The notes under the pieces were generated by a model. The model searched no databases, had not been told where the DNA came from, and saw only the letters and a list, made by a program, of their open reading frames with translations. Position numbers and translations under genes: made by a program. This document shows, piece after piece, positions 4,673-16,885 of a stretch of DNA of 25,582 nucleotides. The number at the start of each line of letters is the position of its first letter. Position 1 is the stretch's first letter. The stretch lies in contig JABMRZ010000458.1 of NCBI GenBank assembly GCA_013202315.1, forward strand, positions 1 to 25,582. Direction: 5' to 3'. The DNA is from Candidatus Tariuqbacter arcticus. GTDB lineage: Bacteria > Electryoneota > Tariuqbacteria > Tariuqbacterales > Tariuqbacteraceae.

Positions 4673-6223
4673 TTAATATATTCTTACAACAATTACATAT
4701 ACTTTACCATTTTCTAGCTCGTAAACATCTTCAAGTTTTTCACCACGATCGGTTTTACGTCCGTCAAAAACTACTAAATAAGACTTATCTATATTACAAG
4801 TATTCATATATCTATCTAACTGTTCAAATCCACTTTTTGCCCAACCGATATAGTAATTTACTCCCAGCATTTTTAGCTCAACAATATGTTTAAAACTCAT
4901 AAAACTAACTAACAAATCAACATATCCATTTCCTGAAGCTATTTCTTTTCCGACAAACGCAACCCCACTAAATTTACCTTTTAAATAAATTCCCAAATGA
5001 CTTTGTGCAAGTTTTTCAGGATTTTTCACCCATTTATTCCCGCGATCAATCAAAAATACACCTTGACAATTTTTTGTAATTTCTACTGCAAATTCTTGAA
5101 GCACTTCAATAAATTTGGGAGTTTTTGATAGAATTTCTGCTCTATCAAGAAAAGGTTTATATGGTTGTAATTCTTCCTTTAGTCTTAAAGATAGACCATT
5201 TACTATTCTGTTTACAATTTCGTCGGTAAAATGATTTGTTGTGGCTACATTTATGCCAGCCTCTTGAAATAAAAGGAATTCAGAATCGTCATTTAATACT
5301 AAAATGTCTTTTTTACTCTTTCTTAATTCTCCAGGGAGCTGAGAAGGGAATCTCTGGATTTCCCTTCTTGAAAAAAAATCGTTAACGGATTCTATCTTTA
5401 AATTAGATTCTGCTAATAGATTATTAAAGTTTTCAACAACTTCTACTGAATGTGCAACAGAATCGCCTATCGATTGTATAGCTTGACTTTCCACATAAAT
5501 TTGCTTATGAATTTTCTCAAATGACTCAGTTAAAAGAATACTTTCATATATCCTTTCTGAAATGCTGTTAGTGATTCCTATATATTCTAATAAATTTCTA
5601 TTTGAAAAATCAAAAGCCTTTACCAATTCTTGATAGTCCTCAGAAAAAGAGCGAAAATGAGCAGAAACTGATCTTAAAGACGATCCCAATTCTCTCGCTC
5701 TATTTACTAATTCAATGCCAATATCGGGACTACTAATTTGAATTTGTTTCACAAGGTCATTTGTAAAGGAGATACTGAGAATTTGGATTTGACTATAAGG
5801 AAAAATATTTTGGAGGGTATTTGTGTAATGATACAATGGTCTTTGATATAATGAAATAATACGGCTCAATCTCTTTTCTGTTGCCTTTTTGCTTGTCGTC
5901 CAATTATTGTATGTCTGACTTTCAATAAAGGTTTCATAGAAAGCATCGAATAGATTTGAAGATTTTAATTTCTCATTAAAAATTTCTTCCATATTGAGAT
6001 ATTTAAAATAAAATTCCGCCAAACTTACTAGGTCTGAGTAGCTAAGTTCTTTCCTTATCGAGATTTCAGTTCTAACTAATTTTTCCAATACAGAAAAAAA
6101 GGCTTTTTCTTTGTCTTCTCCCGCATCCAAAAATGCCGCAATTGCACCTCCAGTAATATGAGGTACAAGTTCGATTATACCAAAATCAGGACAATTAAAC
6201 CTTGTTATTAGAACTAAAGCCAT
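4673..6223 (-). CDS. AT-rich hypothetical protein with C-terminal PD-(D/E)XK nuclease-like domain (516 aa)
   Basis: C-terminal motif string KEIASGNGYVDLLV...IVELK...GFEQLDRYM...YLVVFDGR. The N-terminal ~370 aa are unrecognised and largely helical-looking. Confidence 0.7.
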   Translation of the reverse strand: MALVLITRFNCPDFGIIELVPHITGGAIAAFLDAGEDKEKAFFSVLEKLVRTEISIRKELSYSDLVSLAEFYFKYLNMEEIFNEKLKSSNLFDAFYETFIESQTYNNWTTSKKATEKRLSRIISLYQRPLYHYTNTLQNIFPYSQIQILSISFTNDLVKQIQISSPDIGIELVNRARELGSSLRSVSAHFRSFSEDYQELVKAFDFSNRNLLEYIGITNSISERIYESILLTESFEKIHKQIYVESQAIQSIGDSVAHSVEVVENFNNLLAESNLKIESVNDFFSRREIQRFPSQLPGELRKSKKDILVLNDDSEFLLFQEAGINVATTNHFTDEIVNRIVNGLSLRLKEELQPYKPFLDRAEILSKTPKFIEVLQEFAVEITKNCQGVFLIDRGNKWVKNPEKLAQSHLGIYLKGKFSGVAFVGKEIASGNGYVDLLVSFMSFKHIVELKMLGVNYYIGWAKSGFEQLDRYMNTCNIDKSYLVVFDGRKTDRGEKLEDVYELENGKVYVIVVRIY

Positions 6224-9986: not shown

Positions 9987-10017
9987 AAGTGCCAAGTGTC
10001 AAGTACCAAGTGCCAAG
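9987..10017. repeat. Degenerate heptamer array (aagtgcc)n
   Basis: aagtgcc aagtgtc aagtacc aagtgcc aag. Confidence 0.75.
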
Positions 10018-10264
10018 AATTCTGCTTGATACTGACTATATTTAAGATATTATAGGATCTGGTTTGTCTGGGTTAAAAACATTTAATTTATACATTCCAT
10101 ACGCTGAAAGCAAATTTTATGAAGGGGGAATTGGAGAAGCGATTCTTCTCTTTTGCAATGTTGGTGGAGCAATTGAAATATGTAAACCACCATCATTTAA
10201 GGAAATGTTGGTAGTCTGATTGATATTCCGAAATTCATCGAATATTATAATTCCACTAAAAAAC

Positions 10265-10292
10265 TTGATTTTTTTAAAAAATATCGTATTAT
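10265..10292 (+). promoter_or_regulatory. Possible sigma70 promoter of the dCTP-deaminase/GNAT-ASCH unit
   Basis: TTGATT-16 nt-TATTAT about 50 nt before the ATG at 10344. The region is very AT-rich, so a chance match is possible. Confidence 0.35.
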
Positions 10293-10343
10293 ACTAGAAA
10301 GAAATACGCCAAAATCTCATAAATTTGCGTTAGGAAGTAGGAT

Positions 10344-11516
10344 ATGAATAATAAGAATCGGGCTGATGAAATCACTCGTCCGGGAATTTTAAATAAAAAT
10401 CAGATAATCAAATTAATGGACTATGAACATATAATAAATGGTGACAAAAATCACATTGGTGTATCTTCATTTGATCTGCACTTAAGCAAACTTGGATGGA
10501 AATTGGATGCAGGTTTTAAATGTAGGAGCGATAGAACAATAAATGAAATAATCAAGTCCGCTAAAAGTGATGAATTTGAAATAAAACAATTGACTTTATC
10601 TGATTCTGGATTAAAATTAGATAGAGGAAAGACATATTTATTTGAGTTACGGGAAACAATAAATCTTCCGGTTAATTTCTGGGGACAAGGAACTGGGAGA
10701 AGCTCAATTGGACGGCTTGATGTTTTAACAAGATTGTTAGCAGATAATGAAGAACGATACGATGTTGTGACAAATGGTAATAAAAGTTTGTATGTTGAAA
10801 TAACCCCCTTGTCTTTTCCAATTAGGGTGTATCCGGGAACTCCAATATATCAATTGCGTATCGCCTATGGCGATTTTAACAGATTGAGATTGCAAAATGA
10901 CTTACTTAAGTTATATAATGAGTTGCTTAAAAAAGAAAATGGGGAACGATTATCCGGTGAAGATCAGGCATATCTTAGGTTAAATTTGATGCCGGACATT
11001 AGTATACCGGGCAAGAATAAAGTAGTTGCATTTAAAGCTAAGACAAGTGATGATAATGTAATAGACTTGAAAAAAGAGAATGAAGGATTCTATCGACCCG
11101 AAGATTACTGGGAGAAAAAGAAATGTGAAATCACAATAGGAGGGAACTCCGCCCTGAGGATTAAAAAGGATGATTTCTATATTTTAAGATCTTTAGAGAG
11201 ATTTGACTTGCCGGATAATATTGCTGTATATGGTGTTGCGATGACTGAGGAAGTAGGGGAGTTAAGAATACATCATGCGGGTTTTATTCATCCTCGGTTT
11301 GGAAATAATCGTAAAGATAATAAGGGAGCGCCGTTAATATTTGAAGTTCGTGGACACGATATTGAGATGTTATTAATTCATGGAGATGTTATGGCTGAGT
11401 TAAAATACTACCCAATGTCACTTCCAGCGCCGCCTCCAGATAAAAAAGATGATCTTTATTCAAATCAGGAATTAACATTATCAAAATATTTTGGCAATTG
11501 GGAAAATGAAGATTAA
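10344..11516 (+). CDS. dcd: Duplicated-domain 2'-deoxycytidine 5'-triphosphate deaminase family protein (trimeric dUTPase fold, DCD_N + DCD_C type)
   Basis: GILNK..., SSFDLHL, GRSSIGRLDVLTR, LYVEITPLSFPI, FYILRSLE, GELRIHHAGFIHPRFG, LIFEVRGHD, and C-terminal YSNQELTLSKYF follow the long alphaproteobacterial-type dCTP deaminase pattern. Confidence 0.82.
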   Translation: MNNKNRADEITRPGILNKNQIIKLMDYEHIINGDKNHIGVSSFDLHLSKLGWKLDAGFKCRSDRTINEIIKSAKSDEFEIKQLTLSDSGLKLDRGKTYLFELRETINLPVNFWGQGTGRSSIGRLDVLTRLLADNEERYDVVTNGNKSLYVEITPLSFPIRVYPGTPIYQLRIAYGDFNRLRLQNDLLKLYNELLKKENGERLSGEDQAYLRLNLMPDISIPGKNKVVAFKAKTSDDNVIDLKKENEGFYRPEDYWEKKKCEITIGGNSALRIKKDDFYILRSLERFDLPDNIAVYGVAMTEEVGELRIHHAGFIHPRFGNNRKDNKGAPLIFEVRGHDIEMLLIHGDVMAELKYYPMSLPAPPPDKKDDLYSNQELTLSKYFGNWENED

Positions 11517-12492
11517 TATACATAAGATAAATAATACTAACATAGATTGGAAGCGAGAGCTACAAAAAGAGCATCGTGAGGTCGTTATTGAAGCTTCTGA
11601 TTTATATCCTGGAATAGAAATTTGGTATGACCGTAAGGTCAATCCCGGGATTGAGAGTGGCGAGAGGGTTAGCTATCTAATTACTAAGGATAACAACCCA
11701 GTAGCCGCTGCAATTGCAAAACAGGGGGAAGATGCAAAAATCTGCAGTGTAAGAGTTAGAGATGAGGCGATGAATGAAGGATTTGGGGCTATACTTTTTT
11801 TACTTTTAGCTTTTAGTTTTAGACGAGGAACTAAAACAGTCCATTTCACTGCTCCGGATCATCTTTGGAATGAATATGAAAATTTCTTTACTGGGATGGG
11901 TTTTGGAAGAATAGGGAAGGCAGGGGAACAATATCGCTTATTTGATCCAGAAATAGTTGCTGAAGTAGATTACTTGCATTTTAAAAAGAATGTTTTTGAA
12001 AAATATTTTGCCCGATATGCAGGGCAACTTTCTCAAATAAATGATGATCGAATCGATGTCTTATTGAGCATTAAACCAAAATATGCTAATAGAATTATTA
12101 ATCGCACTAAAATTATGGAATTAAGAAGAAGATTTTCTAAAAAATGGATTGGTAGTAGTGCCTTAATATATGCATCTGCACCAGAACGAGCTATAGTTGC
12201 TAAAGTTAGAATTGCACATGTTATTAAAGATAAACCTATTGCTGTATGGAACAACTGGAAAGATGCAATCGATTGCAGTGAGGAGGAATTTCTTATTTAT
12301 ACAAAAGATATTGACGAGGTTTATGGAATATTGTTTGGTAATGTGATTAGTGTTGGTCCATTTTACTTGACTGCTATGGAGAACAAGTTAGAAGATACAT
12401 TAACACCTCCACAATCATATTTAAACTTGTCGATTAATAGTAAATGGGAAAGAGCAATTGCTTTATCAAATATGTCGCTGCAGAACATCTGA
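11506..12492 (+). CDS. GNAT-like acetyltransferase fused to C-terminal ASCH/PUA-like domain
   Basis: N-terminal YPGIEIWYDRKV...KICSVRV...EGFGAILF (GNAT motif A-like). C-terminal VLLSIKPKYANRII...KIMELRR...LIYASAP...PPQSY (ASCH/PUA signature). ATG 11506 overlaps the dcd stop by 11 nt. Confidence 0.8.
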   Translation: MKINIHKINNTNIDWKRELQKEHREVVIEASDLYPGIEIWYDRKVNPGIESGERVSYLITKDNNPVAAAIAKQGEDAKICSVRVRDEAMNEGFGAILFLLLAFSFRRGTKTVHFTAPDHLWNEYENFFTGMGFGRIGKAGEQYRLFDPEIVAEVDYLHFKKNVFEKYFARYAGQLSQINDDRIDVLLSIKPKYANRIINRTKIMELRRRFSKKWIGSSALIYASAPERAIVAKVRIAHVIKDKPIAVWNNWKDAIDCSEEEFLIYTKDIDEVYGILFGNVISVGPFYLTAMENKLEDTLTPPQSYLNLSINSKWERAIALSNMSLQNI

Positions 12493-12532
12493 ATATCTAT
12501 TTATATATTGAAAATATTACAGTTGACTATTC

Positions 12533-12556
12533 GCCCCCGGTTGGGGGCTTTTTTTT
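12533..12556 (+). terminator. Rho-independent terminator closing the dcd/GNAT-ASCH unit
   Basis: gccccc-ggtt-gggggc followed by 8 T. Confidence 0.85.
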
Positions 12557-16133: not shown

Positions 16134-16156
16134 AAAAATATCTTGAGTCATTGGAA

Positions 16157-16885
16157 ATGAAAACAACTAATTTTACATATTCTGAAGCGATTGAACGGGT
16201 TCTATTGGACAATAATTATATTGCGCCTCTCAGAAAAATATACAAAGACATTGTTAAATATCGACCTCTTACTGGAAAAACCCCTTATAACACGATTCAA
16301 GAAAGAGTGCAGAGGGATCCAAAATTCACTAAAATAGGATTAGGCGTATATGCATTAACCGAGTACTTAGATAAATTACCTGTTGCCTCTGAACCCCAAA
16401 ATAAGAAGGAAGAAGAAGAACGAACTCACTATTCTATCCAAGGGATGTTGCTTGAGATAGGCAATATAGAGGGCTTTGATACTTATTCAGCAAACAAGAA
16501 TGCAGTTTTTGATAATAAACCTTTGAATCAAATCATGACTCTTTCTGAATTTCCAAACTTCACATATCCTCGTATAATTCAATCGATAAGATTTATTGAT
16601 ATCTTATGGTTCAACGACAGGGGTTTTCCAAAATCCGCTTTTGAAATAGAAATTACACCACAATTCAGAAATTCTTTAATAAAGTTCTGCGAATTAAGTG
16701 ATTTTTTTACAAAATTCTATATTATAGCCGAGTCTAAAAATAAAAAGAAATATGAAAGAGAAATATCAAGGCCGGTCTTTAAAGAAATCAAAGGAAGATG
16801 TTTATTCAAAACTTGTGACCAAGTTAGAGAAATGTACTTGAAGTCGGTTGAAAAACAAAAGGTCTATACTGAGTTTTTTTGTTAA
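16157..16885 (+). CDS. HARE-HTH domain + restriction-endonuclease-fold protein
   Basis: N-terminal TYSEAIERVL...KIY...TGKTPYNTI...FTKIGLGVYAL (HARE-HTH pattern). C-terminal HYSIQGMLLEIG...FIDILWF...AFEIE (PD-(D/E)xE variant). Confidence 0.75.
   Translation: MKTTNFTYSEAIERVLLDNNYIAPLRKIYKDIVKYRPLTGKTPYNTIQERVQRDPKFTKIGLGVYALTEYLDKLPVASEPQNKKEEEERTHYSIQGMLLEIGNIEGFDTYSANKNAVFDNKPLNQIMTLSEFPNFTYPRIIQSIRFIDILWFNDRGFPKSAFEIEITPQFRNSLIKFCELSDFFTKFYIIAESKNKKKYEREISRPVFKEIKGRCLFKTCDQVREMYLKSVEKQKVYTEFFC

Follow-up and report, generated by a model that had tools for sequence, protein, structure and literature searches.

The stretch analysed here, called the window throughout, comprises 25,582 nucleotides of contig JABMRZ010000458.1 from the metagenome-assembled genome (MAG) of Candidatus Tariuqbacter arcticus (GCA_013202315.1), and its subject is an AT-rich islet of ~2.4 kb that carries two genes on the plus strand between the genes for MazG and the POR gamma subunit, the identities of which were confirmed. 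Gene 1 encodes a 390-amino-acid protein, DCD2, with the tandem-domain fold of dCTP deaminases and dUTPases, and gene 2 encodes a 328-amino-acid fusion of a GNAT domain with a PUA-like ASCH domain, termed GNAT-ASCH. The two genes are an obligate, co-evolving and co-transferred pair and form a mobile cassette. Gene 2 begins before gene 1 has ended, so that the two share 11 nt (ATGAAGATTAA), a layout that is identical in the homologous loci L007 and L009 and suggests translational coupling. Although the open reading frame (ORF) of gene 2 is listed from a TTG at 11491, the ATG at 11506 is taken as its start because it yields 328 amino acids, precisely as many as the nearest homologues have, and these align over the whole query.

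The islet differs from its surroundings in composition. Over positions 10001-12500 the GC content lies at 0.31-0.37, against ~0.47-0.55 on either side and ~50% for the contig. Downstream, the operon ends in a GC-rich hairpin followed by a T8 tract (GCCCCCGGTTGGGGGC, -13.9 kcal/mol, z = -2.2), and upstream, gene 1 is preceded by a 334-bp leader that matches no Rfam family and contains no ORF longer than 51 amino acids and no noteworthy small one. Promoter-like hexamers are present at 10220-10248 and 10265-10292 as consensus matches only, and such matches number 19 in the AT-rich stretch vs 12.6 expected, barely above chance. The initial annotation had described an AT-rich islet with its own putative promoter, coupled genes and a strong terminator, inserted between mazG and the POR cluster; the GC profile, the overlap, the hairpin and the empty sites of relatives described below uphold this picture, but the hexamer count does not bear out the promoter. 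Just 5' of the hexamers, a 23-nt sequence is repeated imperfectly in direct orientation (10157-10179 and 10204-10226; AATGTTGGTGGAGCAATTGAAAT and AATGTTGGTAGTCTGATTGATAT, 47 nt apart); this repeat could be an operator or a chance occurrence in AT-rich DNA. The coordinates of all features are collected in Table 1.

Table 1. Coordinates in the window of the two-gene cassette, its parts and its leader
Feature	Position	Strand	Evidence
AT-rich leader of the islet	10010-10343	+	promoter-like hexamers, imperfect 23-nt direct repeat
Gene 1, DCD2, tandem-domain dCTP-deaminase/dUTPase-fold protein	10344-11516	+	Pfam, NCBIfam, PDB 2r9q
His316 codon, at the motif-III Asp position	11289-11291	+	alignments to 2r9q, M. 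tuberculosis Dcd and clade sequences
Gene 1/gene 2 overlap	11506-11516	+	ORF ends
Gene 2 (GNAT-ASCH), GNAT domain, amino acids 1-175	11506-12030	+	Foldseek, Pfam matches of homologues, phrog_13728
Gene 2 (GNAT-ASCH), ASCH (PUA-like) domain, amino acids 183-328	12052-12492	+	PDC-M11B, GevA and ZmASCH matches
Intrinsic terminator closing the two-gene operon	12533-12556	+	hairpin followed by T8

The association of the two genes was surveyed with one genome per species, which yielded 80 loci with a DCD2 relative, and the partner was sought with a hidden Markov model (HMM) of the fusion. Almost every locus with a DCD2 identity of ~33% or more has the fusion directly alongside; at the 16 most distant loci, it is never adjacent. 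In the DCD2 tree, a long branch (1.35 changes per column, support 100) sets the side of the paired sequences apart, and 58/61 rows on that side have the partner adjacent, counting one locus (L067) in which it was missed by the gene caller and recovered by the fusion HMM. The exceptions comprise a locus cut by a contig end (L027) and three genuine orphans, namely two Caldithrix copies and one Myxococcales copy. A separate clade of stand-alone DCD proteins (Hyphomicrobiales, Acidobacteriaceae and others) shows conserved synteny and is devoid of GNAT-ASCH. Reciprocally, all ten other genomes of the phylum that hold a full-length fusion have DCD2 beside it, as do all five fusion-bearing genomes in a sample of 401 Planctomycetota, so that the pairing proposed in the initial annotation proves to be conserved elsewhere. 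In addition, the partner protein was used to retrieve six metagenome contexts, and in each of them DCD2 lies next to the partner gene.

The two genes also evolve and travel together. Pairwise distances of DCD2 and of the fusion are correlated in a mirror-tree comparison (r = 0.86; Mantel test, 0/2000 permutations as high), the inter-gene gap lies between -77 and +74 nt and is most often -4 nt (57 loci), and five Planctomycetota loci have the reversed gene order. The pair is found across a dozen phyla, which the DCD2 tree mixes freely, and its GC content is lower than that of the flanks in 50/52 loci, by a mean of 8.8 points, in hosts whose own GC content spans 30-70%. The paired loci have no third gene in common, whether a metabolic neighbour, a transporter or a restriction or reader partner. 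Where the pair decays, it is mostly DCD2 that is affected: an in-frame TGA, single and at a variable position, interrupts DCD2 beside an intact partner in L022 (7944-9152), L026 (7980-9167) and G013, and DCD2 is truncated in G011; a split fusion is found in G020.

Several further observations concern the members of the pair individually. The in-frame TGA codons could be explained by pseudogenisation, sequencing error or recoded TGA. A natural 724-amino-acid DCD2/GNAT-ASCH fusion (P0206) is known from a single contig only and could be a frameshift artefact. In the two Caldithrix copies (L039:7216-9125 and L066:6430-8339), the partner-less DCD2 lies directly 3' of a ParA-like ATPase gene, which it overlaps by 1 base, with the same synteny in both, and six further genomes of the same family contain a partner-less DCD2 of similarly low identity to that of the window.

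Comparison with related genomes reveals an empty insertion site. In the same-family genome G002 (93% complete), the gene order is S9 peptidase, mazG, porG, porD with a mazG-porG gap of 310 bp, and in the same-order genome G001 this gap measures 548 bp; neither has the cassette genes between mazG and porG. Since mazG is directly beside porG in both relatives, the pair is an insertion in the window, where the gap amounts to 2743 bp. The insertion is accompanied by no integrase, and no direct repeats flank its boundaries, where the intergenic DNA of the relatives is too diverged for alignment. The fusion is carried by one of three genomes of the order and by 11/79 of the phylum, with presence and absence both occurring within single genera. 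The empty site, this patchy carriage, the low GC content of the pair and the phylum-mixing tree together argue for a foreign origin.

The complement of nucleotide enzymes in these genomes bears on whether DCD2 is a housekeeping gene. Four relatives (G002, G001, G019 and G022) possess dut and no Dcd besides the cassette's own; DCD2 is therefore not housekeeping, and together with the empty site and the patchy carriage this agrees with the initial annotation, which had treated the gene as something other than a vertically inherited dcd. The relatives in the phylum that have dut only and no canonical dcd presumably obtain dUMP by another route. The MAG of the window has dut on contig C51 and, on contig C111 (L001:172-1179), a gene for a 335-amino-acid protein that combines a single Dcd-fold domain with a hydrophobic membrane tail at its C terminus. 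In this protein, the deaminase Glu is replaced by Gln (PLQLVN) and the motif-III Asp by Asn (FINPGW); it has no PADLOC match.

DCD2 belongs to the tandem-domain Dcd family, as indicated by matches to Pfam DCD_N (E 4e-30, 105.4 bits, cut-off 21.4), DCD_C (E 3e-31, 108.9 bits, cut-off 22) and DCD, and to PDB 2r9q, a structural-genomics entry from Agrobacterium tumefaciens (E 3e-62). Gene 1 is annotated as 2'-deoxycytidine 5'-triphosphate deaminase in public records, and the NCBIfam equivalog of that name, PRK07559, is matched with 209.2 bits, under its curated 283-bit cut-off. Aligned with Mycobacterium tuberculosis Dcd, the N domain keeps the Ser/Arg motif (GRSSIGRLD, of GxSSxxRL type) and the catalytic Glu152 and lacks the AGFIDPGF segment; that segment is retained in the C domain as AGFxHPxFG, along with a second Glu (Glu334), and the Ser/Arg motif is absent there. 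Ser120, Arg124, Glu152 and Glu334 are invariant in the family; these residues, Asp126 and many others are common to the paired and stand-alone clades. Stand-alone tandem Dcd proteins (PRK07559, 2r9q) thus resemble DCD2 in the DCD_N and DCD_C fold and in the Ser/Arg/Glu core, but are only ~30% identical to it and have neither its His for Asp nor a GNAT-ASCH partner.

This His for Asp exchange is specific to the paired clade. Position 316, which corresponds to the motif-III Asp (xIDPGx), is occupied by His in 61/61 paired-clade sequences; in 2r9q, M. tuberculosis Dcd and 16/16 stand-alone sequences, it is Asp. In the dUTPase fold, the motif-III Asp contacts the deoxyribose 3'-OH, and in dUTPases it activates the water molecule that hydrolyses dUTP; to our knowledge, it is universal in Dcd and dUTPase. 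The paired-clade DCD2 is accordingly predicted to keep deamination and to have lost or altered the other function.

The Pfam match of the fusion protein encoded by gene 2 is limited to a weak ASCH hit (E 0.022) with no match to a Pfam GNAT family, whereas its homologues exceed both the GNAT and the ASCH thresholds, and one of them (P0158) that of Acetyltransf_7. An AlphaFold model built on 50 homologues reaches a pLDDT of 95.1, and in Foldseek its N-terminal half retrieves many GNAT structures and its C-terminal half ZmASCH of Zymomonas mobilis (TM score 0.82). In the GNAT half, the glycines of the acetyl-CoA loop (G92 and G94 of GxG, xxxGxG/A) are conserved, and Y34, W40, R54, K78, C80, Y143 and E149 are family invariants. 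In the ASCH half, K202, E205, R207, Y222, S304 and a PPQSY motif are conserved.

The ASCH half matches PADLOC PDC-M11B (E 5e-26 on amino acids 186-313), GevA in hhalign (E 5e-30) and, as its closest characterised relative, ZmASCH (PDB 5guq, profile E 7e-30), a protein that binds single-stranded nucleic acids and weakly cleaves single-stranded RNA. The functional cleft residues Tyr47, Lys53 and Ser128 of ZmASCH have counterparts in Y222, R228 and S304 of gene 2, although ZmASCH is a stand-alone 149-amino-acid protein with neither a GNAT domain nor a DCD partner. The ASCH motif of gene 2, K202-x-x-E205-x-R207, is of the GKER type and sits inside a fusion protein; neither the GKTR (Lys-Thr-Arg) octapeptide nor the small monomeric form of the YqfB type is found. 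On this sequence evidence, the ASCH half is a member of the GevA/PDC-M11B/ZmASCH subfamily and not YqfB-like, which corrects the comparison with YqfB drawn in the initial annotation. Many ASCH proteins have been reported to deacetylate N4-acetylcytidine (ac4C) through a Lys/Glu dyad of the GKER type (bioRxiv 10.64898/2026.02.27.708502), and this dyad is present in gene 2; the same preprint cites an earlier report that ZmASCH lacks ac4C deacetylase activity.

The nearest known system is PDC-M11, or GevT/GevA. A tblastn search of phages leads to Escherichia phage PhiR47_2 (PV340567), in which two overlapping genes between cI and kil are annotated as GevT toxin and GevA antitoxin and match PDC-M11A and PDC-M11B, respectively. 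A remote homology links the whole fusion to the GevT family (hhalign, 96% probability, E 4e-9, 270 columns across both domains), the GNAT domains of both match phrog_13728 and the ASCH domains of both match phrog_3136. GevT relatives, named N-acetyltransferase by NCBI, correspond to the GNAT-EVE proteins that Bell et al. 2020 (PMC7641849), after Iyer et al. 2013, describe as lying next to ASCH genes, in operons predicted to be toxin-antitoxin systems common in prophages. The window cassette has in common with PDC-M11 the ASCH subfamily, the GNAT phage family, the GNAT plus PUA-like architecture and the form of a mobile accessory cassette of two overlapping genes. It differs in that GNAT is fused to the GevA-type ASCH and the partner is a dUTPase-fold enzyme without similarity to GevT, and in being cellular, whereas the PhiR47_2 pair is prophage-borne. 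In Planctomycetota (L114-L123), 8/13 stand-alone GevA-like ASCH genes are preceded by a GevT-family (PIN)-GNAT-EVE gene, so this phylum contains both PDC-M11-type pairs and the DCD2 cassette.

Other systems resemble the cassette in single respects. In the toxin-antitoxin operons TacAT and AtaRT, the GNAT gene stands second, and GNAT toxin-antitoxin systems (TacAT, AtaRT, KacAT) therefore match the window in having the GNAT gene downstream in a two-gene operon; here, however, the upstream gene is DCD2 in place of a ribbon-helix-helix/DUF1778 antitoxin, GNAT is fused to ASCH, and the sequence match of gene 2 to KacT is marginal (E 1.2). An anti-phage dCTP deaminase that acts in nucleotide-depletion defence (Tal et al. 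2022, bioRxiv 10.1101/2021.04.26.441389) has the same proposed outcome, removal of dCTP by deamination, but it is a single gene with a zinc cytidine-deaminase fold, while DCD2 has a dUTPase-like fold; the difference in fold had been foreseen in the initial annotation. PADLOC does not contain the pair as a system, as the initial annotation also supposed: DCD2 matches no family at E <= 1, no window gene reaches a PDC-M11A model, and only the ASCH half is matched, by PDC-M11B. A literature search returned no usable paper on GevA/GevT, PhiR47 or the Pfam names, only a single passing mention of PDC-M11 in each of two surveys, and no paper functionally linking a dCTP deaminase with ASCH.

We tentatively favour the reading of the islet as a two-gene operon of conflict type that was acquired horizontally and is self-contained, resembling a toxin-antitoxin or abortive-infection system, a function that we infer from the obligate pairing, the co-evolution, the insertion, the patchy carriage, the low GC content and GNAT and PUA-like parts of the kind found in GevT/GevA; it is the leading possibility while still falling short of probable. 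In such an operon, DCD2, with its Ser/Arg/Glu set and His for Asp, would most likely be a monofunctional nucleotide-pool enzyme that converts dCTP, or an N4- or 5-modified dCTP, to dUTP, and its activity would lower dCTP, raise dUTP and harm DNA replication. The ZmASCH/GevA-like domain of GNAT-ASCH may bind single-stranded nucleic acid and its GNAT domain acetyl-CoA, and the protein would regulate or neutralise its partner DCD2 by forming a complex with it, by acetyl transfer or by both; poisoning would then require a disturbance of this balance by phage infection or loss of the cassette. The assignment of the poison to DCD2 is suggested by its decay pattern, the GevA-like ASCH domain of the partner and the precedent of dCTP depletion.

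A number of results weigh against this conflict reading. The 72 immediate neighbours at ~20 loci are mostly housekeeping genes (PEPCK, aconitase, ribonucleotide reductase (RNR), DnaA, radical SAM enzymes), and no defence-island signal is found among them, with few and mostly generic PADLOC matches; the enrichment in defence islands envisaged in the initial annotation is thus not seen. A search of 50,697 phage records yielded no DCD2 relative, a scan of IMG/VR with the DCD alignment yielded no DCD2, and paired-type DCD2 was not found on PLSDB plasmids. Intact His-type DCD2 occurs without the partner in Caldithrix and a few other genomes, and the enzyme is therefore not intrinsically lethal. Moreover, the toxin and antitoxin labels of GevT and GevA are the annotation of a GenBank record, and the effect expected of the Asp-to-His exchange is reasoned from general knowledge of dUTPase-fold enzymes.

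At the level of individual loci, the neighbourhoods are more varied. Nucleotide-metabolism genes adjoin the pair at single loci (RNR, 5'-nucleotidase, PNP, EndoV; MazG in the window), and conflict-type neighbours, which count in favour of the conflict reading, are present at others, including a CAP12-PCTIR TIR gene, RmuC, HNH and a methyltransferase fragment, and an OLD-like ATPase with a small partner gene. In L094 (6476-16557), the pair is flanked by a small XRE-type helix-turn-helix gene on one side and by head genes of lambda-like type (GpA terminase, portal, S49 protease, GP7 capsid) on the other. In the prophages Lj965 and psiM100, GevT/GevA-like pairs likewise lie just upstream of terminase genes.

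Within a conflict operon the roles could also be reversed, which we consider possible if doubtful: GNAT-ASCH would be a GevT-like effector directed by its PUA-like domain at nucleic acid or a cytosine nucleotide, and DCD2 an enzymatic antidote that, much as DarG reverses DarT, might for instance convert acetylated dCTP to dUTP by taking off its N4-(acetyl)amino group. This assignment draws on the homology to toxin-annotated GevT, with which the GNAT half has phrog_13728 and conserved Y/W/K/G/T/GF/E positions in common, on the full-length fusion never occurring without DCD2 whereas DCD2(His) does occur alone, and on a gene order, with DCD2 first and GNAT second, that is also known from TacAT and AtaRT. 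A highly conserved 390-amino-acid enzyme would, however, be an unusual antitoxin, the fusion already contains a GevA-like ASCH as the supposed antitoxin part, DCD2 is broken more often than the fusion, and N4-acetyl-dCTP as an intermediate is pure conjecture. The proposal of the initial annotation that GNAT-ASCH controls the deaminase accordingly survives as one of two possible role assignments, given the remote homology of the fusion to toxin-annotated GevT.

An accessory nucleotide-metabolism pair without any part in conflict, yet prone to horizontal transfer, is on balance unlikely; its task would be to clean up or salvage cytosine nucleotides that are N4-acylated or otherwise modified, or to open an additional route from dCTP to dUTP. 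Such a role is conceivable because of the missing defence-island signal and the mostly housekeeping neighbours, and it would fit both the strong constraint on the catalytic residues of all three domains and the ac4C deacetylation reported for K/E (GKER) type ASCH proteins. The patchy distribution and the consistent low-GC signature across hosts of 30-70% GC speak against it, as do the want of a conserved metabolic neighbour or transporter and the properties of ZmASCH, which binds and cuts single-stranded RNA and reportedly does not deacetylate ac4C; a GNAT, being a writer, has no place in pure salvage.

More improbable is a nucleic-acid modification system in which GNAT-ASCH writes, and perhaps erases, an acetyl mark on RNA or DNA and DCD2 adjusts the precursor pool. 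The architecture parallels that of GNAT-EVE proteins, for which the writing of acetyl marks on nucleic acids was reportedly proposed by Iyer and colleagues in 2013, and the nucleic-acid-binding cleft residues of ZmASCH are conserved. Acetylation of DNA bases is a proposal summarised by Bell et al. 2020 (PMC7641849). Nevertheless, the pair is not phage-borne, has no conserved restriction or reader partner and shows no evident need for a dCTP deaminase. Finally, an ordinary housekeeping dcd with an unrelated neighbour is hardly credible and was rejected because residue 316 is His where motif III has Asp, and because relatives have an empty site and no dcd: the public annotation as a deaminase and the lack of the catalytic Glu in the MAG's sole other Dcd-fold gene (C111) favour it, but the missed PRK07559 cut-off, the strict link to GNAT-ASCH and the low-GC islet oppose it.

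The conflict reading may be carried one step further. That the three domains converge on the N4 position of cytosine is a conjecture, and it would be rather unlikely for the cassette to represent a new class of nucleotide-pool conflict system, in which a re-tooled (Asp to His) dUTPase-fold dCTP deaminase and GNAT-ASCH form a poison/antidote couple around this position; in one version, dCTP or phage-modified dCTP would be acetylated and then deaminated to dUTP. We know of no toxin-antitoxin or defence system with this chemistry. If true, the cassette would add a second, unrelated fold to the strategy of dCTP depletion and link that strategy to the large GNAT-PUA/ASCH conflict group (GevT/GevA, PDC-M11), which could reveal the targets of the acetyltransferases. 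The pair is small, self-contained and present in many phyla known mostly from metagenomes, and it is amenable to heterologous expression; in addition, the invariant Asp-to-His exchange offers a mutational handle on the choice between deamination and hydrolysis in dUTPase-fold enzymes.

Two other AT-rich islets are present in the window. The first (4673-6223, minus strand, GC ~0.30) holds a 515-amino-acid ORF with no PADLOC match and, as its sole match, a weak one to PDDEXK_9 (E 0.007). The second lies inside the POR cluster (16151-16885, plus strand) and holds a 244-amino-acid ORF with no Pfam match and a weak PADLOC match to REase_II (E 4e-4). The sequencing runs that contain the stretch are exclusively DNA runs of a freshwater metagenome.

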